Positions 2,006-34,132 of a DNA stretch of 38,679 bases are shown here, piece after piece. Below the pieces are notes generated by a model. It saw nothing but the letters and a program-made list of their open reading frames with translations, had not been told where the DNA came from and searched no databases. Each line of letters begins with the position of its first letter. Within the stretch, counting starts at the first letter, position 1. Where the stretch lies: positions 1-38,679 of the forward strand of contig DASZJB010000038.1 of assembly GCA_035948615.1 (NCBI GenBank), given 5' to 3'. The DNA comes from Candidatus Dormiibacterota bacterium. GTDB taxonomy: Bacteria > Chloroflexota > Dormibacteria > Aeolococcales > Aeolococcaceae. The translations under genes were made by a program, and so were the position numbers.

Positions 2006-3868
<1,863 letters not shown>

Positions 3869-5506: not shown

Positions 5507-6448
5507 ATGCAATCGGTTCCGGGGATCGTGCAGGGGATCCGCGATCCCCTCGGCACGATCCTCCAGCTGCTGACCGGCGTGCTGTCGCACTTCATCGCGA
5601 CCGCGCGAACCGACATCAACGCCGAGCTGAGCCGCTATCTCTTCACAACCGTCGACCCGATCGGATCCGGCATTCGCCCTTTGACGGCAAACCCGGCCAT
5701 CGCGCACCTGAACGGGGCGCTCGCGCTGGTCGCCGACGTGCTCGTCGGCGCGGTCCTGCTGTACGCATCGCTCCGGAGCATCTTCGAGCACTCGATCCAC
5801 GCGCGCTACGCGCTCCACCTGGTGATCCCGCGCGTCATGGCGGCGATCGTCATGGTGCACGGGTCGATGTACTTCATTCAGATGGCGATTGATCTCAACA
5901 ACGCGATCGGCGGGGTGGCGCAGTCGCTCGGCGGGCCGCTGACCATCGACACACTCCCCTGGTCGGGGTCGATGAGCGCCGCGACCGTGTCGATCATCCA
6001 GGGTTCACAGGATCTGTTCCACGCGGTCTTCGCGCTCGGCGTGGTCGTGGCCGTCGTGATTCTGATGCTCTCGTACGTGATCCGAACCGCGATGCTCGAC
6101 ATACTCGTAGTGCTGGCGCCCCTCGCGGCGTTGTGCTCGGCGCTGCCCGACACGCGCCGCTATGCATATACCTGGCTGCGTCTGTTCATGGTCGCGGTGT
6201 TCATGCAGGCCGTGCAGCTGATCATCCTCAGGGTCGCGACGGCGGTCGGGTTCGGCGCCGGGAGCGGCATCGCCGAGAGCCTGTTCGCGCTGGCGATCCT
6301 CTGGATCGTGCTCAAGGTCCCGGGAACGCTCCACGCCGCCACGCATGTCGAGACCAACGCACACACCGCGATGCGCCACGTCCGGCGGTCGATGCACAAG
6401 GCGATGGCCCCCGCACACCATGTGGTGCGCCATCGCACGGCGTTGTGA
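5507..6448 (+). CDS. polytopic membrane protein, TrbL/VirB6-like
   Basis: 313 aa with about 6-7 hydrophobic spans and a basic His/Arg-rich C-terminal tail. It starts 9 nt after the pilin-like gene. Position and topology match TrbL/VirB6-type proteins, but sequence homology was not verified. Confidence 0.55.
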   Translation: MQSVPGIVQGIRDPLGTILQLLTGVLSHFIATARTDINAELSRYLFTTVDPIGSGIRPLTANPAIAHLNGALALVADVLVGAVLLYASLRSIFEHSIHARYALHLVIPRVMAAIVMVHGSMYFIQMAIDLNNAIGGVAQSLGGPLTIDTLPWSGSMSAATVSIIQGSQDLFHAVFALGVVVAVVILMLSYVIRTAMLDILVVLAPLAALCSALPDTRRYAYTWLRLFMVAVFMQAVQLIILRVATAVGFGAGSGIAESLFALAILWIVLKVPGTLHAATHVETNAHTAMRHVRRSMHKAMAPAHHVVRHRTAL

Positions 6449-12160: not shown

Positions 12161-13054
12161 TCAGTCGCTCCCGCGACAGTCCCGGCGGGGTTTGCGACAC
12201 ACGGCGGCGAGACCGACGGCTCGGTCCATGTCCACGGTCGGGTCGTCAACCGGCGCCCAGACGATGTCCGAGGCGAGCCACTCCTGTGGGGGCGGTGGCT
12301 CCGCTGGAGGCGCGACAGCCGGCGCCGGCTCGATCGCACGCTTGATCCGCTCGACGGCACCGGGCGCGACCTTCCGAACGAGCGCTGCGGAGGCCCGAAC
12401 CACCTGTGGGCGGGGCCGTCGCGCAGGCGATGGTTGGGCGTCAACCGGCGGCGCTCCGACGTTCATCGCGCCGTCCGGGAAGACGCGCAGCATCAGGCTC
12501 ACCTCGTCGAAGACCGTCCGGAGCAGCGCGGTCAGCGCCGGTGGCGTGAACTCCATGACGTGCGAACGGGCGAGCAGATGCCCGTCTGGCACGTGCTCGA
12601 ACGACCACAGCCGGTTCGGGGTGCCGACAAAGCACACACCACCGTCGTTGAGACTCTCCGCCATGGCTCGCACGTAGACGAACGGGTCGACGACGTGCTC
12701 GAGGACCTCGGAGCTGGCGACCAGGTCATATGACCTGGGGGCGACCACATCCGGCAGCGGTTTCACCAGGTCTGCGACAAAGAACCGAAGGCCTTGACCA
12801 CCGTAGTTCTCGGTTGCGTATGTGATGGCGGCCGGCGAACTGTCGACACCGTCGGCCGTGGCTCCCGCCCTGGCCATCATGGCGGCGCCGTATCCGGTCC
12901 CACAGCCGAAATCGAGCGCCCTCATCCCCTCCTTGACGAGGTGCTCGGCGATCCATTCGTACACGCCTTCGTGGCCCGCGGAAGTGATGTCTCTGGTTGC
13001 GGTCGGGACGTACCGGTCCTGTCCGTCGGCGGTCGCGAGATCAACGTCGGGCAT
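12161..13054 (-). CDS. class I SAM-dependent methyltransferase
   Basis: Motif I ALDFGCGTGYGAAMMA, motif II-like DLVASSEVLEHV, and a Pro/Ala-rich C-terminal extension. Confidence 0.8.
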   Translation of the reverse strand: MPDVDLATADGQDRYVPTATRDITSAGHEGVYEWIAEHLVKEGMRALDFGCGTGYGAAMMARAGATADGVDSSPAAITYATENYGGQGLRFFVADLVKPLPDVVAPRSYDLVASSEVLEHVVDPFVYVRAMAESLNDGGVCFVGTPNRLWSFEHVPDGHLLARSHVMEFTPPALTALLRTVFDEVSLMLRVFPDGAMNVGAPPVDAQPSPARRPRPQVVRASAALVRKVAPGAVERIKRAIEPAPAVAPPAEPPPPQEWLASDIVWAPVDDPTVDMDRAVGLAAVCRKPRRDCRGSD

Positions 13055-13214
13055 CGGGTGGGAAGCTTACTGCGGCCGCGATGATGGTTCGGACGACCGC
13101 GCTGGATACTATTGGCAGGCTCGGCCGGCTGGCGCAGCGGCCATGTTCGGCTCTCGGACGGCGGGGTAGGACCGGGCGTTGTGGCGGGCGAGCTTCAAGC
13201 GGAATCCCTTCCGT

Positions 13215-13290
13215 CCCAGGGTAGCCAAGTGGTCAAGGCAGCGGTCTGTAAAACCGTGTACCGATGGTTCGACTCCATCCCCTGGGACCA
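13215..13290 (+). tRNA. tRNA with anticodon GTA (Tyr by anticodon), class I architecture, encoded CCA
   Basis: Hand-folded cloverleaf. Acceptor CCCAGGG/CCCTGGG, U8, D arm GCC-AAGTGGTCAA-GGC. Anticodon stem GCGGT/ACCGT with loop CTGTAAA. 5-nt variable loop GTACC. T arm GATGG-TTCGACT-CCATC, A73, CCA. Confidence 0.85.
13249..13288 (+). repeat. direct repeat copy 1 (3' half of the tRNA)
   Basis: TAAAACCGTGTACCGATGGTTCGACTCCATCCCCTGGGAC matches 14256-14295 at 39 of 40 positions. Confidence 0.9.
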
Positions 13291-14255
13291 CACAAAGCCT
13301 TGAGGCAGTAAGGGGTTCGACCCCTAGATTGGCGGCGACACAGGTGCCGATCGAGCGTTTGACAGCCACGACGAAAGCCATCGCGAACATCTGGGCTCGC
13401 CGGGTGGCCGCTGGCTGCAACTCGTACGATCCTCGTCGATGCTCGCGGCGGACAGAACTGACTTGCCCCAGCGGCTTTTTGGGACCGATGGGTGCCTTCA
13501 GAAAGGGAATGGGTTTCTGGGTCAGTGGGCCATGCTAACGACTGCCGTTCGCCGAGAGGTCCCCAACTCGCTGAGATGCGAGGGCGGCGCAGCGTCGACA
13601 AAGCCCTGTGACCGCTTGTACCCGGAGTGTCGTATCCGCGCTGCTTGATCCGCTTCCCAAACTGACAATCGATCTCGTAGTGATAGTGAGCGTGGGATCG
13701 TTTGGTGAGCCCTTTCGCACTAGCCGAGCCGAAAGGGCGACCGTGCCCATGAGGTGAGCCTACGACAGCCACGCGGCCATCGGGCTCAGAACCCGCTGGC
13801 TTTCAGGACGAATAAGACCCTGGCCACGCCGAACAGGGAGGGCGCATAGCCGGTATCGTTTGCCGTTCCAGCGATTCAGGGGGCGGCAAGGGGTAGCTTG
13901 AGCGAGACACCGAACCAGGAAGGTGCGCCGTCCGACAGGCTTACGTGTCGAACCTGCGGAGCTGAACTCCGCTTCCTCGGTCAGGCGCCGGGCTGGGCTC
14001 CCGCGTATGAGCACGTCGGCCGGGGCGATTGGTTGTGGCGTCACGTCAGGCACACGCCCAAGCCTTCCCAGTATCGATGGCAGCACGCGATGGTGCTTAT
14101 CGCCGGTGTCCTTGCGGTTCTCTTCTTCCTCAGCGTCGTGGTAGGAAGTTGCGCCGACTTCCTGCGGTGTGCAGGTGTCGTGCGAGGCATCTGCCCGCCA
14201 GGCGGCGGATGACAGCGCGCTCTTGGGGCAGGACAGAGCGCCAGCCAGCGGGAAA
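13289..14255. mobile_element. putative decayed integrated element or island remnant bounded by the tRNA 3'-half duplication
   Basis: About 1 kb between the direct repeats. It is visibly less G+C-rich than its flanks and has no convincing long ORF and no integrase. Confidence 0.35.
13898..14212 (+). CDS. hypothetical protein with one CxxC and one TM helix
   Basis: ORF track, 104 aa, TTG start. Contains CRTCGAELRF and the hydrophobic segment MVLIAGVLAVLFFLSVVVG. It lies inside the putative insert. Coding status is uncertain. Confidence 0.3.
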   Translation: MSETPNQEGAPSDRLTCRTCGAELRFLGQAPGWAPAYEHVGRGDWLWRHVRHTPKPSQYRWQHAMVLIAGVLAVLFFLSVVVGSCADFLRCAGVVRGICPPGGG

Positions 14256-14295
14256 TAAAACCGTGTACCGATAGTTCGACTCCATCCCCTGGGAC
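14256..14295 (+). repeat. direct repeat copy 2 (orphan tRNA 3' half, att-like)
   Basis: TAAAACCGTGTACCGATAGTTCGACTCCATCCCCTGGGAC. The single G-to-A change would break the T stem. No 5' half is present. Confidence 0.9.
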
Positions 14296-14310
14296 ACCCA
14301 AGCTTTGCAG

Positions 14311-15102
14311 CTAGCGAGTCACGTACCGGTTGTACCGAACGTGTGCCCACACATAGCCGACCACGGTTAAGCCCACGCACCACGCTGTAGCGATGATCGC
14401 GGCGTTGCCGATCGGGGTCCCGGTGAGAAGACCGCGCAGGGTGTTGATGACCGAGGTGAACGGCTGGTTCTCTGCGAACCAGCGCACTCCTGCGGGCATC
14501 GACGCAGTCGGCACGAAGGCGCTGCTGATGAAGGGCAGAAACTGCGGAATCAACGACAGGCTGTTTGCGCCGGCGGGTGTCTTCGCTTGGAGGCCGAAGG
14601 CAATCGTCAGCCAGGTGAGTGCGAGCGTCAGCATCGCGAAGACGCCTGCAGCCGCAAGCCATTCGACCACTGTCGCCGTCGGACGGAAGCCGAGCCCGAT
14701 GGCAACCGCAACGACAAGCGCGCCGCTGATCAGCGTACGGATCAGGCTGCTGAGCACCTGCCCGATCAACACGGACGTGCGCGTGATCGCCATGGTGCGA
14801 AAGCGGGCGATGATGCCTTCGTTCATGTCGATGCAGACATTGATCGCCGTCGCCGCAGCCGCGGCGCCCGCGGTCATCACGAGAATGCCCGGAGCGAGGT
14901 AATCGATGTAGCGGCCCCCAGCGGGTGTTGCGGCTCCCAGACCGGCCCGCAGGGTGTTGCCGAACACGCCGACGAACAGGAGCAGCAGGAACACCGGAAC
15001 CATCAAGCCGCTGATCGACAGGATCGGATAGCGAAGCGAGTGCTTGATGTCGCGCCGGAGCATGGTTGCGGAGTCGCGCATCGCAAAGGCGGAGGTGCTC
15101 AT
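14311..15102 (-). CDS. ABC-2 type transporter permease (DrrB-like)
   Basis: 263 aa with about 6 TM helices. An ATGA overlap joins it to the upstream ATPase gene. Confidence 0.85.
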   Translation of the reverse strand: MSTSAFAMRDSATMLRRDIKHSLRYPILSISGLMVPVFLLLLFVGVFGNTLRAGLGAATPAGGRYIDYLAPGILVMTAGAAAAATAINVCIDMNEGIIARFRTMAITRTSVLIGQVLSSLIRTLISGALVVAVAIGLGFRPTATVVEWLAAAGVFAMLTLALTWLTIAFGLQAKTPAGANSLSLIPQFLPFISSAFVPTASMPAGVRWFAENQPFTSVINTLRGLLTGTPIGNAAIIATAWCVGLTVVGYVWAHVRYNRYVTR

Positions 15103-16046
15103 GCCGATTCCTCGAGTGTGTGATGTGGAGCGCCGGTCAGGGCGAAGAAGACGTCATCGAGGTCCGGCGTCTCCACGGTGACGCTCTCGACCCCGAGAGC
15201 ACGCTCGTCGAGCTGATCGAGCAGGCTTCGGAGCGAGCGCGGCGTGCCGTCGGTGGGAATATCGAGGACGAGCGCGTCGTCGTCGATTGACTCCGCGCCG
15301 AGCACGCTCGCAGCGGCGCCGACATCCGCGGCATCGCGGAAGTGGAGCCGGACACGGCCGCCGGGGATGCGCCGCTTGAGTTGATTCGGCGTGCCCTCGG
15401 CGACGATCCGCCCCTGGTCGAGGACGCCGATCCGGTCGGCGAGCTGGTCGGCCTCATCCAGGTTCTGGGTGGTGAGCAGAACGGTCACGCCGCCGGCGAC
15501 GAGCTCTCGCGTGATCTGCCACATGGTGTGGCGGCTGCGAGGATCGAGCCCGGTGGTCGGCTCGTCGAGGAAGATGATTCGGGGTTCGCCGAGCAGCGTC
15601 ATGGCGAGATCGAGTCGTCGCCGCATGCCCCCCGAGTACTTCATGACCATCTGCCCGGCCGCCTCCACCAGGTCGAATCGTTCGAGGAGTTCGTCGACCC
15701 GCAGGCGACCGGCGCGCCGGTCGAGGTGGTGGAGATCGGCCATGAGCAGCAGGTTCTCCCTGCCCGTGAGGAGGTAGTCGACCGACGAGAACTGGCCGGT
15801 GACACCGATCGCATCGCGAACCGCCTGCGGCTCGCGGCCGACGTCGAAGCCGGCAACCTCGATTGCACCAGCATCAGCGCGGATCAGCGTCGAGAGGATT
15901 TGCACAGTCGTCGTCTTGCCCGCTCCGTTGGGTCCGAGCAGCGCGAACACGCTCCCACCGGCGATCTCGAGGTCGATGCCGTCAAGCACCACCTTTTCGC
16001 CGAACGCCTTGCGCAGCCCGACGACTCGTACCGCCGGGGCGCTCAT
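15099..16046 (-). CDS. ABC transporter ATP-binding protein (DrrA-like)
   Basis: Walker A GPNGAGKTT, signature YSGGMRRRL, Walker B IIFLDEPTTGLD. Confidence 0.92.
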   Translation of the reverse strand: MSAPAVRVVGLRKAFGEKVVLDGIDLEIAGGSVFALLGPNGAGKTTTVQILSTLIRADAGAIEVAGFDVGREPQAVRDAIGVTGQFSSVDYLLTGRENLLLMADLHHLDRRAGRLRVDELLERFDLVEAAGQMVMKYSGGMRRRLDLAMTLLGEPRIIFLDEPTTGLDPRSRHTMWQITRELVAGGVTVLLTTQNLDEADQLADRIGVLDQGRIVAEGTPNQLKRRIPGGRVRLHFRDAADVGAAASVLGAESIDDDALVLDIPTDGTPRSLRSLLDQLDERALGVESVTVETPDLDDVFFALTGAPHHTLEESA

Positions 16047-23292: not shown

Positions 23293-26200
23293 CTACCTCG
23301 ACAGCCGTCTTCGTCTCCGGCCCACAAACGCCGACCCCGCACCGGCGACGATCAGCAGCAGCCCTGGGGACAGCACCAGTAGGATCCCGGCTCCGGTGCC
23401 CGGATCCGGCACACCCGGGCTGACGATCGCATCGACTGCTCCCACCTCAGCCGGCGCTCCGCTGTCTCCGGGTCCGCTCACGGTCGCGACGTTGCGAATG
23501 TGCGTGCCCGCTGCTGCGGTGACCCTGACCAGGACGGTGATCACCGAGGTGGCGCCCACAGCGAGCGTCGCGGTGGTGTCGGTGCAGGTGATGGTCGATC
23601 CCAGCACACCACACAGCCACGCACCCGGGACCGTGCCGGCAACATGCTCGAACGCCAGGCCGTCGGGCAGAGCGTCGACCACGATCAGCGGCAGCAACGA
23701 ATCGGACGGTCCGCTGTTCTTGACGGTGAGGGCGTAGGTCGCAACGCCCCCGGTCACCAATCCGCCGGTCAGCGTCTTGGTCAGCGACAGGTTGTAGTCG
23801 CGAGTCACGGTCGCGGTATCCGATGAACTGTTGTTGGCAAGGTTCGGATCGGGATTCGATCCAGTGACTGTCGCGATGTTGACGATGCTCGATCCAACCG
23901 AAGGCGCCACCAAGACGGTGAGATCGATGACCGGGGCAGCCGCGCCGCTTGTCAATGTCGGCGCGTACGTGCACGTCACCACCTGACCGGTGGCGGCGCA
24001 CGTCCAGCCGAGCCCAGCGAAGGTGACGTACGTTTCACCGGCGGGCAATGTATCGGTGACGGTGATGCCGGCACCCTCATCCGACGGCCCCGCGTTGCTG
24101 ACCGCGAGGAAGTAGGTGGCATCCGTGCCCGCGACCAACCCGACGCCGCCATGACTCTTGGTGATCTGGAGGTCGGACTCGAGACTGAGGACGGCACTCG
24201 CGCTCCCGGTGTTGTTCGCCGGGTTGGGGTCCACCGTCGGTGACGACACGTGCGCGCTGTTGACCAGCGTCCCGGTATCCGACGACGCGAGGTCGACCGT
24301 GACGGTCAGGAGCGGTGCTGTCTGCGTGGTGGGCAGTGAGCTTGACTCCAGGCAGGTGACGTCCTGGCCCGCCGCGGAGCACGCCCAACCCGTTCCCATT
24401 CCCGAGACGAAGGTCTCTCCTGCAGGGAGCGTGTCGGTGATCGTCAATGGAGCGGCGGCATCGGCGGGGCCGTTGTTGACAACACTGATGACGTAGGTCG
24501 CGCCGTCCCCCGGGATGAACGGACCGGATGTGTCCTTGGTCAGCGCCAGATCGGCCTCAGGCACAATCGTGGTGGGATCCGTGCTCGTGTTGTTGTCCGG
24601 ATTGGGGTCGGCGGTCGTCGGGGTCACCACCGCGGTGTTGTCGACCACCTGGTCGAGCTCGCCCGCGCCGATGCCGACTACAACACTGATCGGAGTCGCG
24701 TCAGCGCCGGCCGCAAGTGCGCTCGTGGCGTCGCAGGTGACCGTGCTCGCGATGGTGGTGCAATTCCAGCCGGCGCCGCCGCTGGCGGAGAGCAGGTTCT
24801 CCGGTGCCGGCACGGTGTCGGTGACCACCAGGGGTAGCTGGGAGTCGCTCGGCCCGAGGTTGGTGACCTGCAGCGTGTAGGTGTTGCCGGTCGTCCCGGC
24901 GTCGAAGTTTCCGGTGTGACTCTTGACGATGCGCAGGTCGGCCGATTGCGTCACCGCGCTGTTGTCGGTCGACGTGTTGTTGGCGAGCGCGGGATCGAGC
25001 GTGCTGCTGCTCACCGTAGCGGTGTTGGAGATCGATCCACCCACGAACGACGGCGATATCGCGATCACGAGCGTGAGCAGCGGCTCGCTCTGTCCTGCGG
25101 GCAGCGCACCCAGCTGCGTGCAGGTCACCTGCTGCCCCGACAGCGAGCAACTCCATCCGGCGCCGCCGTGTGAGATGAAACGTTCGCCGCTCGGAAGGTT
25201 GTCGATGACGGTGATCGGTGGCGCCGCATCGCTCGGTCCGAGGTTGGTGACGGCGAGGTTGTACTTCGAGGTCTGTCCCGAGACGAACGCGCCGCTGTCA
25301 GTCTTGACGATGCGCAGATCGGCCTGGGTCGCCGAGACGTTGCTCGTTGACGACGTGTTGTTCGCACTGTTCGGATCGGGAGTCGCGCTGCTCACCGAGG
25401 CGGTGTTGACGATCGTCTGTGCCACCAGGTCGGCGGCGAGCGAGACGGTCAGCGTGATCGGGTTCGCCGACCCTCCCGCCGGGAGCGCCGCCGCCCGCGT
25501 GCACGTCACCACGCCGCTGAGGAAGCTGCACGACCACCCCGCTCCCGTCGCCGAGACGAAGCCCTCGTTGCCGGGCAGCGTATCGACCACCGAAAGGGGT
25601 GCGGCCGCGTCACTCGGTCCGGTGTTGGCGACTCGGAGCGAGTAGGTCGCGTCCTGGCCGGCCACCAGCGTGCTGGTCAGGGTCTTGACTATCGACACGT
25701 CCGCCGATTGCGTCGTCCCCGCCACGTCGGTGCTCACGTTGTTGCCCGGATTCGGATCGGTGGTCGGGCTGCTCACCGTGGCGGTGTTCGTGAGGCTCGC
25801 AACCGTGACGCCGGACCCGATGGCGACCGTCATCGACAGCGTGCGGGTGGCTCCATTCACCAGTCCCGCGGGATCGGTGCACACCTCGCTTCCGGCGACC
25901 AGACTGCACGACCATCCCGCGGAGACGCTCACGAACGTCTCGCCGGCCGGCAGGGGATCCGTCAGCGTCAGCGGTCCGGCGGCATCGCTCGGACCGTTGT
26001 TGGTGATGGTGAAGTTGTAGGTACCGTTCGTGCCCGCCTCGAAGGTGCCCACGTGCACCTTGGTGAGGACCACATCCGCAGACGTCTGCACCGATGTGGA
26101 GTCATGGCTGGTGTTGTTGGCGGGGTTGGGGTCAGTCGTCGGACCGCTGATCGTGGCGGTGTTGGTGATGCTTCCGGCGGCCTGCGAGGATGCGACATCG

Positions 26201-29200
26201 ACCACGACGGTGATCGGCGACGCGAAGGTGCCGGACGTTAACGTGGTGCTGTCGGTGCACGTGAACTGGTTCCCCGCCTGTGCCCCGCACAGCCATCCAC
26301 TGCCGGTCGCGGTGACCAGCGTCTCGTTCAGCGGAAGCGTGTCCACCATGGTCAGCGGCGCCTGCGAGTCACTTGGCCCATGGTTCTGCACACTGATGGT
26401 GTACGTCCCAGAGCCGCCGGCGGTGAAGCTGCCTGAGTGGCTCTTGGTCACCTGAAGATCCGCGCTGGCCACGATTGTCGTGGGATCGGTGCTGGTGTTG
26501 TTGGTGAGGTTGTCGTCGTACGTTGGCGAAGTCACCGACGCCGTGTTGTCGATCACCGTCCCGTCGGGCGTGTTCGCCGGCGTCGACACCACGAGGGTGA
26601 TCGGGTTTGCGGTCGCCCCGCTGGCGAGGCCGCCTGCATATGTGCACGTCACCGTGCCCGACGCCACGAGGCAGGTCCAGCTCGTGCCCGTGGCGGATAC
26701 ATAGGACTCGCCGGCCGGGATCGCGTCAGTGACCACCATCGGGCTCGCCGCGGTCGATGGACCATTGTTCGTGACGCCCAACGTGTAGCTGCCGTTGGCG
26801 CCGGCGTTGAATGTTCCGGCGTGGCTCTTGGTGATCTGCAGGTCGGCCCGCCCGATGAACGCTTGCGCAGTCGCGTTTGCGCTCGTGTAGGGGCCACTCA
26901 GCGTGCCGGTCGCACCCGAGTCGTCGGTCCACGTCGAGAACACGGTGTTGGTGTGCGGATTCGACGGACCCGTCCCGGGTGATGTCTGCGCAGCCAGGCT
27001 CGGCGTCGCCTCGTATTTGATGGTCACGTTCTGTCCGGGAGTCAGGACTCCGAGGCCACTCCAGTGCAGCACGTCACCGCCCGCGTTCGGGGTGACGGTC
27101 GGATCCGCGTGACCGTTGGGGCCGGTTGGGAAGATGATGGTTGCGGTCCCCGGATCGTAGGACCAGTTCGGCGGCAGGGTGTCGGTCGCGTCAACGCTGT
27201 CGGCACCGGCAAACCCATTGGTGTCGGTCGCCGTGAAGCTCCACTCGAACGGTGCGTTGGCGTACGCCGTTGACCCGTTCGGGGTCGACTTCGTGTCCAC
27301 CACGCTGGGAAACTGCATGGTCACGTTCTTGCTCGAGGAGATCGGACCATAGACCCTCGCGCCCGCTGGATCACCTCCGATGTTGTCCCACGATGTCAGG
27401 GTGGCGGTGTTGGCGATCACCTGCCCGACCGACAGGAGCGAGGATGCCTCAGGGATCACCTGGAAGCTCACCGTGTCCGTCTGGTTCGCGTACAGCGGTC
27501 CGGGGATCGTCCAGGTGACGTCCGTCCCATTGAAGCCGACGGTGCCCGGTGCGAGACCGGCGAGCAGCACGCTCCCCGGGACGTAGACCACACCGGCCGG
27601 AATGGGATCCTGACCGACGAGGTCGAACGCCGGGCTCACGGCCGCGAGGTTCAAGTTGGCGAGCGCGATCGAGTACGTCAGGGTGCCGTGCGGCGAGAGC
27701 GTCGCCGACGACGCGCTTTTGGTGATCGACATGTCGGGTTCAACGATCTGTGTGAGTAGCGCAGGGTTCGAGCTGGTGATCGGCTGCCCGCCCGTGGCGT
27801 GATTGGTCAGGGTGGCAACGTTGCTGATGTTGACGGTGCGTTTGTTCGCCGCGATGTTCGCGACCGTCACCGAGAAGGAGACCAGGAACACCTCGTCGCT
27901 GGCCGTCGCGTTCGCGTAGACGGGAGGAAAGCTGAAGCCGACGGTGTTGCTCGCCGCGGTGTAGCTGTATGTGAAACCACCCGGAATGAGGGTGCCTTCC
28001 GCATACGTCGTCGGGCTGCCGGGGAGGGTGACGAGACCGCTGCCGGTCACATAGGCCTGCGCAGCCCCGAGCGGATCCGCGAGTGACGCGGTGTAGAACG
28101 TCGTGTTATGCGGCACCTTCACCTGGACGGTGTATGTGATCGTCTCGCCGATCGTGGCCTGTCCGATGGCGGCGTTGCCGCTGTTGGTGATCGAGGTCAT
28201 CGCCGACTTGGTCACCGCGCCGACCGCCGTGATCACGTTGGCGGTGCCATTCGCCGCGGGGGCGTTCTCCGCGCCAACGGTGACTGTGGGATCGATGTTC
28301 GAAAGCGGAAAGTACGTGTTGTCGGGTTGTCCGGAGGCATTGTGCTCGCCGACGTAGCTGCGCACCCCGGCATTGTTTGTGAAGGTCTCGCCGGCTGCGG
28401 CGTCCGGCCGGATCTGCAGCACGTAGGAGAGGGTGGTGTTCGCGCCGACGCCGATCTGTGCGATCGCGCTCGACGGCCACTCAATCGCCTTGGCTGCCGT
28501 GACGCAGCTCCCACTCGCCGGGAGGATCGCGCTCACCTCGGAGCAGTCCTCCTGCGCCGGCAGGACATCCCATACCTCGACGTGGTACGCGGGGACCAGC
28601 CCGGTGTTGGTGACAGTGAGCGTCCACCCAACCTGGTCGTTACCGTGCACCGTGTCGCCGGTGGATGTCGGCGCCGCGCTTCCATTGATCGTGGAGACCT
28701 TCTTGGTCATGCTCAGAATGGGCTCGGCCAGCTCATAGGTCGCGAGGCTGCGCGCCGCGAACGTGGTTCCTTCGGTATTCGTGGTCACGACCTTCGCCAG
28801 GTTCTGCGTCAGCGTGAACGTCGCGCCAACGCCGAGCGTCGGATCGGCGCTCGCGATCACCGCAAACTGCACCTCGAAGAGTGCTCCCGGCGTCTGATAG
28901 AGATTGCCGTCCGCTCCCGGCGTTCCCATCGTCCATTGCAGTTCGCCAGCAGTCGGGGTCAATGTCACCGCCGAAGCGGTATTCGACGCCGTCACGGTCG
29001 CCGAACCAGCGACATACGTCGCATTCGGCGGCAGGAAGTCGCTCACCGTTGGGTTCTTGAAGTCGACGCCCGGCGCAAAGGCGACATCGATCTGGAAGCA
29101 GATCTGGTCACCCTTCTGATAGAGAGGTGGATACCCGGCCGAACCCACCGCGAGATATGTGGCGGTCGAGCAGTCCAGCGGACTGCCTGCGGCGACATTC

Positions 29201-30951
29201 TGTGAGACTGACTTGGTGATGGTCAGGCCCGGGGCATCCTGCGTGGCGGTCGCGGTTGCGTTGAGGCCGTCGACCGTTGCTGGCCCGTCGTGGGAGATGG
29301 GCGTGCCTCCGGAGACGCAGTTGGGGTTGGTTGCGTCGCAGCGAACCGAGAAATTACCGGTGGCGGTCTCCGTGTTGGTGAGAGTGTCGAAGCCGACTGT
29401 TGGAACGGTGTTGCTCTTGTTGGCCTGGTAATCGATGCGATCGACCGCCGGGAACGACACCGTGGCGATGCCATCTGGATTGACATGCCCGAGGTTCCAC
29501 ACCACGGTGAAGGTGCCGTCGGCGTTCTCCACCACCGAGGCGTAGGCGGGGTTCGGCAGCGCGCCATTCGGGTCGCACTGCGGATCAGCATGGCCGTCGT
29601 AGTTGATCGAGCCGATCGGGCACAGCCCTGACGGCAGCGTGTCGGTGACCGTCGTCGAGTCGGAGTACCGATACTCGGAGACGTTGACGACGATCGTGTA
29701 GGTCACCGCCTGCCCCTGAAGGAACGTCGGCTTGTCGATGCTTTTCGCGGTCGTGATGTCCCGGGCGGTTATCGAGGAGTACGCGCTCGCCTGGATCGGG
29801 TTGGAGCCGCCCCCGAGCGTTCCGGAATACGTACCGGAGGCAACGCCGTAGCTCGTGAGCACGGTGCCGTCCTGGGTTTCGGGCCCGCTGTTGTTGTCGA
29901 GGTTCGCCGCCTGGCCATCCGACACGGCAGTTGGCGTCGTCCCCGTCCATGTCATGGTGTTCGCCCTGATCGGAATCCCGACAACGAACCGGATGGTCGT
30001 GGTCGCGCCCGGTGCCAGGCTGCCGATGCTGTTCCATTGCACTGCCGTGTACACCGCAGTCGGCAGCGGCCCGGCGCCGTCGGGGTCGAGGTTGACCGTG
30101 GTCACCGATGTCGGAGGTGAGGTCAGGCAGCCGGCGGGAGCACCCGTGTGACCGGAGAGCGGGCCGCTGCCGGGATATTCCTCGGTGCTGCCCGGGTTGG
30201 TCGGCGTCCCGGTGGTGTTGTCCGTCTGACCGCAGAGCAGGTCCTCGAGGCCGGCCGGCAGATAGACGGTCGCCCCGACGCCGTTGGTGGCGTGCACCTG
30301 GTTGTTGGTGATCGTGACCGTGTACACCGTCTGGTGGTCATGGACACCACGGAGGAGCACCCCGCCCGGCGCCAGGCTGATCTGCAACGCGCTCAGCGCG
30401 GTCGTTCCCGAAGCATTTGCCGAGCCGGTGAAATTGCTCGCGGAGCCGCCGGCGGTGAATTGCGGAACCTGGCGCGCATCGGTGTTGACGTAGGCGGACG
30501 CGCTGTCCGTGTAGGTGCTGTTGGCGAACAGGAACGGGGCGGGACCGGTATCGGTCGCCGCGATCACCTTGAACGTGAGGGTCGCAACCGAGCCCGGCGA
30601 CAGATCGGAGACGTTGCTCCAGATGAGCGTCGTCCTGTTCAGCGACGGTTGGTTGCTGAGGATCGCCGGGTTCCCCAGGCTCCCGCTTCCGGCCACGTAC
30701 GACACGCCGGCTGGAAGCACGTCTTCGAAGCTCAGGTTATAGCCCCAGGAGCCGCCCGCAGGATTCGTGACGGTCAGCGTGACCGTGGAACTCGTCCCAT
30801 AGAGGACAGTCCCGGGAACTGTTTCGGCCAGCGAGATGTTCGGCGAGCCCGCGGCCAGCGCGCCCGAGACCGGGCCCGACGTCGTGTAGCACCCAAGCGC
30901 GATCAATGCCGCGCACAATCCGACGACCAGCTGCCGCCCAAGCCGATTCAT
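23293..30951 (-). CDS. giant (2552 aa) secreted DUF11/'conserved repeat domain' surface protein
   Basis: Single uninterrupted ORF with the N-terminal signal peptide MNRLGRQLVVGLCAALIALGCYTTSGPVSGALAAG. Ig-like repeat units fill the whole length. The C-terminus has a TM helix and an RRRRR tail. GAGG lies 8 nt upstream of the ATG. Confidence 0.9.
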   Translation of the reverse strand: MNRLGRQLVVGLCAALIALGCYTTSGPVSGALAAGSPNISLAETVPGTVLYGTSSTVTLTVTNPAGGSWGYNLSFEDVLPAGVSYVAGSGSLGNPAILSNQPSLNRTTLIWSNVSDLSPGSVATLTFKVIAATDTGPAPFLFANSTYTDSASAYVNTDARQVPQFTAGGSASNFTGSANASGTTALSALQISLAPGGVLLRGVHDHQTVYTVTITNNQVHATNGVGATVYLPAGLEDLLCGQTDNTTGTPTNPGSTEEYPGSGPLSGHTGAPAGCLTSPPTSVTTVNLDPDGAGPLPTAVYTAVQWNSIGSLAPGATTTIRFVVGIPIRANTMTWTGTTPTAVSDGQAANLDNNSGPETQDGTVLTSYGVASGTYSGTLGGGSNPIQASAYSSITARDITTAKSIDKPTFLQGQAVTYTIVVNVSEYRYSDSTTVTDTLPSGLCPIGSINYDGHADPQCDPNGALPNPAYASVVENADGTFTVVWNLGHVNPDGIATVSFPAVDRIDYQANKSNTVPTVGFDTLTNTETATGNFSVRCDATNPNCVSGGTPISHDGPATVDGLNATATATQDAPGLTITKSVSQNVAAGSPLDCSTATYLAVGSAGYPPLYQKGDQICFQIDVAFAPGVDFKNPTVSDFLPPNATYVAGSATVTASNTASAVTLTPTAGELQWTMGTPGADGNLYQTPGALFEVQFAVIASADPTLGVGATFTLTQNLAKVVTTNTEGTTFAARSLATYELAEPILSMTKKVSTINGSAAPTSTGDTVHGNDQVGWTLTVTNTGLVPAYHVEVWDVLPAQEDCSEVSAILPASGSCVTAAKAIEWPSSAIAQIGVGANTTLSYVLQIRPDAAAGETFTNNAGVRSYVGEHNASGQPDNTYFPLSNIDPTVTVGAENAPAANGTANVITAVGAVTKSAMTSITNSGNAAIGQATIGETITYTVQVKVPHNTTFYTASLADPLGAAQAYVTGSGLVTLPGSPTTYAEGTLIPGGFTYSYTAASNTVGFSFPPVYANATASDEVFLVSFSVTVANIAANKRTVNISNVATLTNHATGGQPITSSNPALLTQIVEPDMSITKSASSATLSPHGTLTYSIALANLNLAAVSPAFDLVGQDPIPAGVVYVPGSVLLAGLAPGTVGFNGTDVTWTIPGPLYANQTDTVSFQVIPEASSLLSVGQVIANTATLTSWDNIGGDPAGARVYGPISSSKNVTMQFPSVVDTKSTPNGSTAYANAPFEWSFTATDTNGFAGADSVDATDTLPPNWSYDPGTATIIFPTGPNGHADPTVTPNAGGDVLHWSGLGVLTPGQNVTIKYEATPSLAAQTSPGTGPSNPHTNTVFSTWTDDSGATGTLSGPYTSANATAQAFIGRADLQITKSHAGTFNAGANGSYTLGVTNNGPSTAASPMVVTDAIPAGESYVSATGTSWTCLVASGTVTCTYAGGLASGATANPITLVVSTPANTPDGTVIDNTASVTSPTYDDNLTNNTSTDPTTIVASADLQVTKSHSGSFTAGGSGTYTISVQNHGPSDSQAPLTMVDTLPLNETLVTATGSGWLCGAQAGNQFTCTDSTTLTSGTFASPITVVVDVASSQAAGSITNTATISGPTTDPNPANNTSHDSTSVQTSADVVLTKVHVGTFEAGTNGTYNFTITNNGPSDAAGPLTLTDPLPAGETFVSVSAGWSCSLVAGSEVCTDPAGLVNGATRTLSMTVAIGSGVTVASLTNTATVSSPTTDPNPGNNVSTDVAGTTQSADVSIVKTLTSTLVAGQDATYSLRVANTGPSDAAAPLSVVDTLPGNEGFVSATGAGWSCSFLSGVVTCTRAAALPAGGSANPITLTVSLAADLVAQTIVNTASVSSATPDPNSANNTSSTSNVSATQADLRIVKTDSGAFVSGQTSKYNLAVTNLGPSDAAPPITVIDNLPSGERFISHGGAGWSCSLSGQQVTCTQLGALPAGQSEPLLTLVIAISPSFVGGSISNTATVSSSTLDPALANNTSTDNSAVTQSADLRIVKSHTGNFDAGTTGNTYTLQVTNLGPSDSQLPLVVTDTVPAPENLLSASGGAGWNCTTIASTVTCDATSALAAGADATPISVVVGIGAGELDQVVDNTAVVTPTTADPNPDNNTSTDPTTIVPEADLALTKDTSGPFIPGDGATYVISVVNNGPADAAAPLTITDTLPAGETFVSGMGTGWACSAAGQDVTCLESSSLPTTQTAPLLTVTVDLASSDTGTLVNSAHVSSPTVDPNPANNTGSASAVLSLESDLQITKSHGGVGLVAGTDATYFLAVSNAGPSDEGAGITVTDTLPAGETYVTFAGLGWTCAATGQVVTCTYAPTLTSGAAAPVIDLTVLVAPSVGSSIVNIATVTGSNPDPNLANNSSSDTATVTRDYNLSLTKTLTGGLVTGGVATYALTVKNSGPSDSLLPLIVVDALPDGLAFEHVAGTVPGAWLCGVLGSTITCTDTTATLAVGATSVITVLVRVTAAAGTHIRNVATVSGPGDSGAPAEVGAVDAIVSPGVPDPGTGAGILLVLSPGLLLIVAGAGSAFVGRRRRRLSR
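23296..23412 (-). other. C-terminal sorting-signal-like tripartite motif (VPDPGTG / hydrophobic helix / RRRRR)
   Basis: VPDPGTGAGILLVLSPGLLLIVAGAGSAFVGRRRRRLSR, the last 39 residues of the giant protein. Confidence 0.6.
23413..26847 (-). repeat. nine tandem in-frame DUF11-type repeats of about 125-129 aa (about 380 bp)
   Basis: Each unit follows ADLxITKxHxGxFxAG..YTLxVTNxGPSDxxxPLxVxDTLPAGExFVSxxGxGWxCxxxGxxVTCT...NTAxVSSPTxDPNxxNNTS. The first unit starts at RADLQITKSH (GCC at 26847-26845). The units are diverged at the DNA level. Confidence 0.85.
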
Positions 30952-32031: not shown

Positions 32032-32078
32032 CGGCGCATTGTCGGACAGCCCGGCCGTGGTGCGACCCGGTTCGGCCG

Positions 32079-32150
32079 TACCCGCACGGGGAGTCGAACC
32101 CCGGTTACCACCTTGAAAGGGTGGTGTCCTGACCGCTAGACGATGCGGGC
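32079..32150 (-). tRNA. tRNA-Glu (anticodon TTC)
   Basis: The minus strand reads GCCCGCATCGTCTAGCGGTCAGGACACCACCCTTTCAAGGTGGTAACCGGGGTTCGACTCCCCGTGCGGGTA. It folds as a canonical cloverleaf with anticodon loop CTTTCAA. CCA is not encoded. Confidence 0.9.
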
Positions 32151-32229
32151 GCGACCGCCAATCTTAGGTTCGCGTGGCGACCTCGAGGCCGGCCACAAGG
32201 CAAACGAAGCGCGCCGGTATACTCGCGGC

Positions 32230-32688
32230 ATGCCAGTCAGAGAGATCGTCGGCAAGACCGTCGGCTTTGGCCTCGTGGCCCTCGCGCTCATCGTCGGCGG
32301 CATCCTCGACCTGCTCGGGGGCCACGTCTACAACGATTACCTGAACACCGCGCTCGGCATCATCCTGATCGCCATGGGCGTGGCCACGGGTGGCCTCGGC
32401 ACCTTCCTGATCGTCGGCATCCTCTATGAAGACAGGCTGCGCCGGCAGGACGAGGCGGTGCACATCACGCCGCGTGGAACGCCACCGGCGCCGCCACCGC
32501 CCTGGGGGATGGCCGACGTGGGCAAGCCGCCCGGAGTCGTTCGCGTCGGTGATGCGGCCACAACGTCGGGTGGCGGAGGGTCTCCGCGGGTGATGGCCGT
32601 CGTGGTCTCGAACCTCGATGCGCCGATGCTCATCGTCGGGTTACTCGCGTGGACGATCCTGACCCTCGTGCTCTTCGCGCCCCACTGA
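32230..32688 (+). CDS. membrane protein, hypothetical
   Basis: Internal ATG (MPVREIVGKTVGFGLVALALIVGG...). Three or four hydrophobic helices and a Pro-rich loop. Confidence 0.55.
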   Translation: MPVREIVGKTVGFGLVALALIVGGILDLLGGHVYNDYLNTALGIILIAMGVATGGLGTFLIVGILYEDRLRRQDEAVHITPRGTPPAPPPPWGMADVGKPPGVVRVGDAATTSGGGGSPRVMAVVVSNLDAPMLIVGLLAWTILTLVLFAPH

Positions 32689-32698
32689 GTTTGTTCTA

Positions 32699-34132
32699 GT
32701 GCCCGACGCGCGGGTTCGCACCCGGTTCGCGCCGTCCCCCACCGGCGCGCTGCATTTCGGCTCCGTCCGCACCGCGCTGTTCGCATGGCTCGCGGCGCGC
32801 CATGCCGGCGGCGACTTCATCCTCCGCATCGAGGACACGGACCAGGAGCGCTACATCCCCGGCACCGAGGCGCTCATCCTCGAGACACTGAGCTGGCTCG
32901 GGCTCGATTGGGATGAGGGCCCCGAGGTGGGCGGTCCGCACGAGCCGTACATCCAGTCATTGCGAATCGCGACCTACCGCGAGCATGCCGCCCGGCTCGT
33001 CGCCGGCGGCAGCGCGTACTGGTGCACCTGCACGCCGGTGCGTCTTGCGGCGATGCGCGAAGCTCAGCGAGCACGCTCCGAGCCGACCCGCTACGACCGG
33101 CGCTGTCTGACTCGCCAGACCGAGGTGGCCGAGGAACGGGCGAGCGGGATGGCGGCAGTGGTACGGCTGCGGATGCCGGATGGCGTCAGCGAATGGGACG
33201 ACGTGGTCCGCGGTCACGTGAGCTTTGCCAACGCCGACATCGATGACCAGGTCCTGCTCAAGTCCGACGGCTTTCCCACCTATCACCTCGCGGTCGTCGT
33301 CGACGATCACCTCATGGAGATCAGCGATGTGATCCGATCTGACGAGTGGATCCCATCGACGCCGAAGCACCTTGCGCTGTATGCGGCCTTCGGCTGGGAC
33401 GCGCCGCGATTCGCGCACGTCCCGGCAGTGCTTGGGCCGGATCATCAGAAGCTCAGCAAGCGCCGAGGCGCTCGCAACGTGCTCGAGTATGGCGAGCTCG
33501 GCTATCTCCCTTCGGCAATCGTCAATGCCATCGCGCTGCTGGGGTGGTCGTCCGGCGACGAACAGGAGGTGTTCACCCGGGAGGAGCTCTGCGAGCGATT
33601 CACCCTGGAGCGCGTCAACGCTGCGGCAGCGATCTTCGATCCCAAGCGACTCGATGATCTGAACGGCGTCCACATCCGGCGCATGAGCACCGATGACCTT
33701 GTCGAGGCACTCGAATACCACCTGCCCGGAACCAGCAAGGAGACGCGCCGGCTGCTCATCCCGATGCTCAGAGAGCGGATGGTGACTCTGGCCGATGCGA
33801 CGCGCCTCTGCGCACCGTTGCTCGACGAGGTCACGCTCGATCCCAGCGTCGAGTTCCCGCCGAAGAAGGTCGATCAGTCGACCGCCGTCACCATGATCGA
33901 CGCCTGCATCGACGCCGTCGAGCACGGGGGTCTCGAGAACCACGACGCGTTGCTCGAGCGGATCCGCGCGGTCGCGGACGGCTCGGGCGCGAAATCCAGA
34001 GACGCATTCCGCGTTCTCTACATCGCCATACTTGGCGCGCCTGCAGGCCTGCCGGTGATCGAGGCCATGGCGTTCCTGGGCAAGGAGAAGTCGCTGCAGC
34101 GGCTCCGTGAGGCGCGCGCCCGGCTCGGTTGA
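32699..34132 (+). CDS. gltX: glutamate--tRNA ligase
   Basis: RTRFAPSPTGALHFGSVRTALF (HIGH region), ILRIEDTD and KLSKRRG (KMSKS). 477 aa. Confidence 0.93.
   Translation: MPDARVRTRFAPSPTGALHFGSVRTALFAWLAARHAGGDFILRIEDTDQERYIPGTEALILETLSWLGLDWDEGPEVGGPHEPYIQSLRIATYREHAARLVAGGSAYWCTCTPVRLAAMREAQRARSEPTRYDRRCLTRQTEVAEERASGMAAVVRLRMPDGVSEWDDVVRGHVSFANADIDDQVLLKSDGFPTYHLAVVVDDHLMEISDVIRSDEWIPSTPKHLALYAAFGWDAPRFAHVPAVLGPDHQKLSKRRGARNVLEYGELGYLPSAIVNAIALLGWSSGDEQEVFTREELCERFTLERVNAAAAIFDPKRLDDLNGVHIRRMSTDDLVEALEYHLPGTSKETRRLLIPMLRERMVTLADATRLCAPLLDEVTLDPSVEFPPKKVDQSTAVTMIDACIDAVEHGGLENHDALLERIRAVADGSGAKSRDAFRVLYIAILGAPAGLPVIEAMAFLGKEKSLQRLREARARLG

Follow-up and report, generated by a model that had tools for sequence, protein, structure and literature searches.

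Why does a bacterial chromosome carry a tyrosine tRNA gene with the layout used by archaea and eukaryotes? The division between bacterial tRNA-Tyr, with a long variable arm and a G1-C72 first pair, and archaeal and eukaryal tRNA-Tyr, with a short arm and C1-G72, is a textbook boundary between the domains, and genetic code expansion relies on this split in tyrosine identity for its most widely used orthogonal pair. The rule is restated in the review by Giege and Eriani (PMC9976931), which gives A73, C1-G72, G34, U35 and A36 as the archaeal/eukaryal tyrosine identity determinants. The question is raised by the following gene in the window, i.e. the whole 38,679-nucleotide stretch of DNA analyzed here:

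13215..13290, plus strand: class I tRNA(GUA), from ARAGORN and Rfam RF00005; mature body 13215-13287, CCA 13288-13290.

One of the two tRNAs that ARAGORN predicts in the window is tRNA-Tyr (gta), on the plus strand at 13215-13290, and the whole RF00005 model (positions 1-71 of 71) aligns to 13215-13287 with 67.2 bits against a gathering threshold of 29 (E=1.1e-12) and zero non-standard pairs flagged, a match that identifies the gene as a tRNA. In the RF00005 alignment, from which structure and numbering were taken, the acceptor stem CCCAGGG/CCCUGGG (C1-G72, C2-G71, C3-G70, A4-U69, G5-C68, G6-C67, G7-C66) is followed by U8 and A9. The D stem has 3 bp, GCC/GGC (G10-C25, C11-G24, C12-G23), with an A13/A22 mismatch, and the D loop is AGUGGUCA. 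The anticodon stem GCGGU/ACCGU carries the loop CUGUAAA (C-U-G-U-A-A-A) with the anticodon GUA at position 34, the variable loop GUACC is 5 nt long, and the T arm is GAUGG-UUCGACU-CCAUC; the discriminator is A73, with CCA next in the window allele. All of the invariant positions (U8, A14, G18G19, U33, G53, T54-C56, A58, C61) are intact, and thermodynamic folding recovers the acceptor, anticodon and T arms at -28.4 kcal/mol (z = -2.1). The first-pass annotation had described a clean cloverleaf with a GTA anticodon, C1-G72, A73 and a 5-nt variable loop, which ARAGORN and RF00005 confirm, and a 3-bp D stem, on which the RF00005 alignment agrees. A scan of the gene for promoter and terminator consensus sequences, which is weak for this phylum, found none. 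About 100 nt upstream, a motif GGCTACTATTGGCAG (GGATACTATTGGCAG in the window, 13100-13125) is kept between the tRNA and the divergent methyltransferase gene, and is conserved in the upstream regions of the related loci L130, L156, L159 and L161; a TACTAT hexamer within it could be a -10 element of either gene.

All five archaeal/eukaryal determinants (A73, C1-G72, G34, U35, A36) are present in the tRNA, together with the short variable loop. Canonical bacterial class II tRNA-Tyr has A73, G34, U35 and the A36-A37-A38 loop in common with it, whereas the long arm and G1-C72 of the class II molecule are missing here. With the archaeal and eukaryal cytoplasmic tRNA-Tyr (e.g. of M. jannaschii and yeast) it shares class I architecture, C1-G72, A73 and GUA, and yeast tRNA-Tyr also has the GCCAAG...AAGGC D arm, the CUGUAAA loop and the UUCGACU T loop found in this tRNA. 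That this architecture is unusual for a bacterium, as had been noted at first reading, is borne out by the 853 tRNAs predicted in the fetched DNA, a small and biased sample in which 64 have a GUA anticodon: the 56 outside the lineage are all 79-92 nt long and of the long-arm type, none of them starting with C (0/56), and the short ones (8/64) are all this same gene. When genome contigs were searched with the loose pattern CTGTAAA-N15-GGTTCRANTCC, no class I tRNA(GUA) occurred among the matches listed (at least 120), which comprise Elusimicrobia tRNA-Ser arms, tmRNA ends and chance matches; so loose a pattern gives no measure of how widespread the gene is. Anticodon-based annotation labels the gene an ordinary tRNA-Tyr, so that such cases escape notice.

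A literature search for C1-G72 tRNA-Tyr in Dormibacterota or other non-CPR bacteria found none, and the only published bacterial exception that could be found is that of the CPR lineages, reported by Mukai, Reynolds, Crnkovic and Soll (2017, Life 7:8; PMC5370408). Several CPR phyla contain a C1-G72 tRNA-Tyr in which the long arm is usually kept and sometimes missing, and which is always accompanied by an archaeal/eukaryal-type TyrRS; some CPR genomes contain two tRNA-Tyr forms (PMC5370408). The tRNA described here resembles these in its bacterial genome, GUA anticodon, C1-G72, A73 and a body of apparently bacterial descent, and some of the CPR tRNAs are likewise armless. By contrast, most CPR tRNA-Tyr keep the long arm that is absent here; the CPR are episymbionts, whereas the host here is a free-living, high-GC member of the Dormibacterota with Mb-scale contigs; and the partner TyrRS has been shown for the CPR, whereas the Dormibacterota tRNA is known here from the tRNA gene alone. 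What is new relative to the CPR cases is the phylum, the lifestyle and the complete loss of the long arm.

The context of the gene had first been given simply as bacterial, which is correct and too generic: the NCBI names of homologues and clusters place it in Candidatus Dormibacterota. The G+C content of the window is 64-70% throughout, and Pfam assigns its genes to 2-oxoacid dehydrogenase E2, TypA/BipA, a SAM methyltransferase, an ABC-2 transporter, MTHFR and GluRS, besides tRNA-Glu. A phosphatidylinositol cluster comprises a CDP-alcohol phosphatidyltransferase, a lipid-A-type acyltransferase and an inositol-1-phosphate synthase (Ino1). The tRNA is flanked by the following genes:

12161..13054, minus strand: class I SAM-dependent methyltransferase, 5'-side neighbour of the tRNA (Pfam, homologues, synteny).
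14311..16046, minus strand: ABC-2 permease (14311-15102) and ABC ATPase (15099-16046), 3'-side neighbours of the tRNA (Pfam).

The adjoining methyltransferase has a 91% identical homologue with the NCBI name Candidatus Dormiibacterota, and the 90%-identity clusters that contain the window TypA and GluRS have members named Candidatus Dormiibacterota and Candidatus Dormibacteria. By sequence comparison, the window comes from the core chromosome of a Dormibacterota/Dormibacteria MAG, and belongs neither to an actinobacterium nor to a CPR genome. The same 90% clusters (window 2006-3868 and 32699-34132) also contain proteins of a TPA MAG (HVC42316, HVC42627, HVC43013) labelled Candidatus Saccharimonadales, a CPR order. 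To judge by G+C content, by the genes present and by the 2-3.5-Mb contigs of relatives, this assignment is probably a taxonomic error, by which surveys of tRNA identity in the CPR could be misled.

A survey of relatives for the same gene, as proposed in the first-pass annotation, was run on related contigs fetched with the methyltransferase as anchor. The tRNA is present in five Dormibacterota lineages, in the same chromosomal neighbourhood in 5/5 and at the exact position in 4/5. These are the population of the window itself, to which L001 and L004 also belong, and the lineages of L125-127, L130, L160/L161 and L157, whose neighbouring methyltransferase proteins are 91%, 76%, 75% and 72% identical, respectively. 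In L001/L004, L125-127, L130 and L160/L161, the ABC-2 permease stands on one side of the tRNA and the methyltransferase on the other, and the permease-ATPase order is that of the window in L001, L125-127, L130 and L160. The site common to these four lineages thus reads ABC transporter, tRNA, methyltransferase/inositol-phosphate synthase cluster, within a housekeeping region that includes TypA, GluRS and MTHFR. In L157 the locus is rearranged, with the methyltransferase inverted relative to the other loci and the tRNA still beside the inositol cluster. In a neighbor-joining tree of the methyltransferases, the loci fall into several separate clades. The tRNA is absent from the non-syntenic contigs fetched with the same anchor (L128, L129, L131-134, L155 and L282), and the L156 contig stops just short of the tRNA site.

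Across these lineages the tRNA is identical at 73/73 positions (window, L001, L125, L130, L157, L160; also L161, whose contig ends at position 72), with C1-G72 and A73 kept in all related loci, and the identity of all copies leaves zero covariation signal among them. Over the same distances, the identity to the window falls to 90% (L125) and 76% (L130) in the methyltransferase DNA, and to 64% (L125) and 55% (L130) in the 150 nt upstream of the tRNA. Because the tRNA is unchanged where the methyltransferase and upstream DNA diverge, the comparison indicates strong purifying selection on the tRNA alone and vertical inheritance, and speaks strongly against both a pseudogene and a recent import. 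The possibility, raised earlier, that a class I tRNA-Tyr is the norm in this lineage holds to the extent that it is the norm at this locus in the relatives. Two long-read assemblies with an identical neighbouring protein differ in the T loop, which has an extra A in L126 and G57 changed to A in L127; these differences may be sequencing errors or real micro-variants.

The locus has in addition been a site of insertion, as seen from the following features:

13249..13288, plus strand: left copy of a 40-nt direct repeat (tRNA positions 35-74), an attL-like junction in the intact tRNA (blastn, repeat search).
13289..14255, unstranded: body of a 1007-bp insertion behind the tRNA, absent from L001.
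14226..14297, plus strand: degenerate tRNA-like copy, attR-like (repeat search, blastn).

In L001 (99% identity to the window), window positions 14256 and 13302 are directly joined, the two parts overlapping by 52 nt; this is the structure of an empty site, and the window therefore carries a 1007-bp insertion. The repeat copies (13249-13288 and 14256-14295; spacing 1007) are 97.5% identical, with one G-to-A change in the T stem. The attR-like copy at 14226-14297 is only loosely similar to the tRNA in its 5' part and, as in the empty-site allele, ends in GGGA-CAC; it is not recognized as a tRNA by ARAGORN or by Rfam, and its fold is no better than that of shuffled sequence (z = -0.58). The 3' end of the tRNA gene varies between loci, with GGGA-CAC in the alleles without the insertion (L001, L125-127), GGGA-GUU in L160, and GGGA-CCA in the window, L004, L130 and L157. 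The occupied allele reads GGGA-CCA-CAC, in which the first insertion bases are the CA that completes the encoded CCA, and comparison with the empty GGGA-CAC indicates that the CCA of the window was supplied by the insertion. The encoded CCA recorded in the first-pass annotation is therefore present in the window, but is not a fixed property of the gene. Within the insertion (13291-14252), there is no Pfam match among the ORFs, no integrase and no coding signal, and no ORF has a GC3 above 0.7, compared with about 0.8-0.9 in real genes of this region; it looks like a decayed or non-autonomous element.

Other loci bear related marks. In L157 (6592-8014), the identical tRNA is preceded, at a distance of about 160 nt, by a gene for a tyrosine-type phage integrase (394 aa), with a DUF3558 gene next to it; among the loci examined, L157 is the only one with an integrase adjoining the tRNA, and the tRNA repeat was not found in its 15.6-kb contig. 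In L159 (1-574, reverse strand), only positions 1-38 of the tRNA are retained, and the sequence then runs into an island headed by a type I restriction-modification methylase-like ORF. The resulting hybrid is a long-armed tRNA-like sequence that scores 25 bits against a threshold of 29, and the contig ends inside the island. The methyltransferase protein of L159 is that of L160 and L161, in which the tRNA runs uninterrupted (in L161 to position 72). Many tRNA genes serve as attachment sites for integrating elements, and the att-like repeat and the insertion polymorphism mark this tRNA gene, from the comparison of alleles, as an attachment site and integration hotspot. Both junctions, that of the insertion repeat and that of the L159 island, lie within the anticodon loop, where integrating elements would recombine. 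The earlier proposal that the tRNA is kept as an integration target agrees with the repeat and the polymorphism, but does not explain the gene itself.

These insertions bring up the question of whether a phage or integrative element introduced the tRNA itself, or whether it was copied from an archaeon or eukaryote, and was then retained near an attachment site. Such a recent horizontal import could be read from the 1007-bp insertion with its att-like repeat, the integrase in L157 and the restriction-modification island in L159. However, the tRNA is present in empty as well as occupied alleles, which makes it the target and not the cargo, and it has the same neighbours down to 75% neighbour identity. 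Scans of IMG/VR with the tRNA and with its 3' half gave 0 matches, GenBank phages gave partial matches only (at most 76% of the tRNA length), and A37 and the D arm are bacterial in style. Recent import is thus very improbable, and the horizontal acquisition suggested in the first-pass annotation is not supported as a recent event by the conserved locus, the bacterial-style A36-A37-A38 loop and the lack of a viral match in these scans. Still less credible is a non-functional relic, i.e. a tRNA-like pseudogene kept as a recombination site only. Degenerate tRNA-like copies do occur at the locus (14226-14297 in the window, and the L159 hybrid), but these true relics are visibly decayed and score below threshold, whereas the tRNA scores 67 bits, has its invariant positions intact, and shows 0 substitutions where its flanks diverge by 36-45%.

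How tyrosine codons are read in this host was examined by aligning TypA, GluRS and Ino1 of the window to their best solved homologues (48%, 40% and 59% identical, respectively). The three genes contain 28 TAT/TAC codons, of which 19 face Tyr, 3 Phe, 1 Trp and 1 His (24/28 Tyr/Phe/Trp/His), and in the same alignments none faces Pro (0/28). On this evidence UAY is tyrosine in the host, and its tyrosine codons are not recoded, so that the host must have a Tyr-charged GUA tRNA. The alignment speaks against recoding, which had been among the explanations first offered, and against a dominant Pro-inserting role for the tRNA.

A Pro-inserting role deserves separate mention because C1:G72 combined with the anticodon of another amino acid is also found in the tRNA-ProX of Streptomyces and Kitasatospora (PMC10404621). 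If its acceptor identity were that of proline and its anticodon that of tyrosine, the tRNA would insert Pro at Tyr codons, as a mistranslator like Streptomyces tRNA-ProX. The bacterial proline determinants outside the anticodon are G72, A73, G15:C48 and G49 (PMC9976931), and all of them are found in the tRNA. By contrast, the strong ProRS determinants G35 and G36 are replaced by U35 and A36, and the hallmarks of tRNA-ProX, namely A33, A34, A15:A48, G21 and an adjacent ProRSx gene (PMC10404621), are absent: the tRNA has U33, G34, G15:C48 and A21, and no ProRSx lies nearby, the neighbours in the window and the syntenic loci being the methyltransferase and the ABC transporter. TAY codons occur at conserved Tyr or aromatic positions, and the Dormibacterota gene is core and invariant, not patchy and not accessory as in the case of tRNA-ProX. 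Mistranslation of this kind accordingly has only a slight chance of being correct, and a tyrosine-specific function is preferred.

The origin of the tRNA body is less sharply defined. In IMG/VR, the D-arm motif TAGCCAAGTGGTNAAGGC occurs in tRNA-Gln (53), Cys (12), Met (12), Ile-like (11), His (9) and other tRNAs, and in Tyr in 0/108. The likeness to Gln- and Cys-type class I tRNAs seen at first reading is thereby confirmed, as TAGCCAAGTGGTNAAGGC is found mainly in Gln, Cys and other class I tRNAs. The D arm was also considered as proof of descent from bacterial class II tRNA-Tyr, an argument refuted by the wide occurrence of the motif in class I isotypes in IMG/VR. As the arm is just as characteristic of class I tRNA-Gln, Cys, His and Met from bacteria and phages, common descent with archaeal/eukaryal tRNA-Tyr is likewise not shown by it. 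When the 853 tRNAs were compared with the anticodon masked, the nearest non-self tRNAs tied at 54/70 among Cys, Gln, Met and class II Tyr, so that no parent isotype can be named; tRNA-Cys identity (U73 and a GCA anticodon) is replaced here by A73 and GUA. The body may have arisen by an anticodon shift. Its A36-A37-A38 anticodon loop is of the bacterial (MiaA-type) style. In archaeal tRNA-Tyr, position 37 is G and the D stem has 4 bp, which makes direct archaeal import unlikely, and eukaryal tRNA-Tyr genes contain introns.

Metagenome contigs were scanned with a pattern consisting of the D arm, CTGTAAA and a 14-32 nt gap, giving 20 contigs of low G+C content (23-37%), of which 19 carry a G1-type short-armed class II tRNA-Tyr; the scanned collection apparently does not contain the lineage studied here. 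The contigs concerned (L135-L154, JGI marine/freshwater) contribute 20 tRNA-Tyr genes on 19 contigs, 79-82 nt in total length and with the same D arm as the tRNA; in several of them, ARAGORN puts T or TG at position 1, and they may be of organellar or phage origin.

Taken with the conserved locus and the TAY alignments, the reading that we consider likely is that the gene encodes the functional tRNA-Tyr of this Dormibacteria lineage, chromosomal and vertically inherited, which combines the archaeal/eukaryal identity layout with a bacterial-style anticodon loop and a body of generic bacterial class I character, and reads UAU/UAC as tyrosine. The charging enzyme would be a TyrRS that recognizes the anticodon together with C1-G72/A73 and has no need of the long arm. 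Among the explanations put forward in the first-pass annotation, a lineage with unusual TyrRS recognition fits best with the 100% conservation and the shared neighbourhood in five lineages. Most likely this enzyme would have entered by gene transfer, as in the CPR, and be of the archaeal/eukaryal type, which lacks a C-terminal S4-like domain; to this we give roughly even odds. The alternative would be a remodelled bacterial TyrRS like that of animal mitochondria, since the animal mt-TyrRS shows that a bacterial-type TyrRS can adapt to an armless tRNA (PMC9976931, PMC5370408). Animal mitochondrial tRNA-Tyr is also of class I, and its mt-TyrRS ignores the long arm; however, this tRNA keeps G1-C72, its mt-TyrRS is indifferent to the 1-72 pair, and the setting is organellar. 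In the gene tables of the window and the fetched Dormibacterota loci (about 200 kb), there is no TyrRS (PF00579).

Whether the gene is the only tRNA-Tyr of its host bears directly on this explanation. In its fullest form, this Dormibacteria lineage would have switched its whole tyrosine decoding to the archaeal/eukaryal rule, with a class I C1-G72 tRNA as the sole tRNA-Tyr, a transferred TyrRS in place of the bacterial one, and a body remade from a bacterial class I tRNA or an arm-deleted tRNA; this is a serious possibility, although we put it at somewhat less than even. Conversely, the tRNA could be supernumerary beside a class II tRNA-Tyr and a bacterial TyrRS, and be orthogonal, with a dedicated synthetase paralogue or a non-ribosomal use. 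The gene is interrupted in at least one assembled population (L159), and if the island there restores no intact copy, it would be dispensable in that population, favouring a second tRNA-Tyr elsewhere; CPR genomes with two tRNA-Tyr forms are moreover known (PMC5370408). Against this, perfect conservation at up to 28% difference in the neighbouring protein is the pattern of a housekeeping tRNA, no synthetase gene adjoins the tRNA in any locus examined, and the tRNA has no oddities beyond the 1-72 pair and the arm length. A supernumerary role is therefore unlikely, though less so than import or mistranslation, and a functional tRNA of the tyrosine decoding system remains the preferred reading.

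CPR lineages live alongside DPANN archaea, and the Dormibacterota are an abundant soil phylum. If the preferred reading is correct, the Dormibacterota would represent a second, independent breach of the tyrosine identity boundary in Bacteria, after the CPR, and the identity rules would be swappable in ordinary free-living bacteria. The lineage would then provide a natural test case for the joint replacement of a tRNA and its synthetase, and possibly a high-GC bacterial tyrosine pair that is naturally orthogonal to standard bacterial systems.

Some minor observations concern the remainder of the window. A tRNA-Glu(UUC) gene on the minus strand lies about 550 bp upstream of GluRS (window 32078-34132), separated from it by a 181-aa ORF of no known family, and is of the ordinary bacterial form. 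A gene for a TrbL/VirB6-like membrane protein and an M23 peptidase stand beside the phosphatidylinositol genes (window 5507-6448, plus strand; L125 16100-17547), and every syntenic relative has them in that position; they have the appearance of a fixed pair of chromosomal genes and not of part of a conjugative element. A single ORF of 2552 aa occupies 23293-30951 on the minus strand, and its counterparts in L126 and L127 contain repeated CLIPPER domains (PF01345) and faint matches to bMG10 and HYDIN-type Ig domains, suggesting that it probably encodes a giant surface protein that is kept in relatives.
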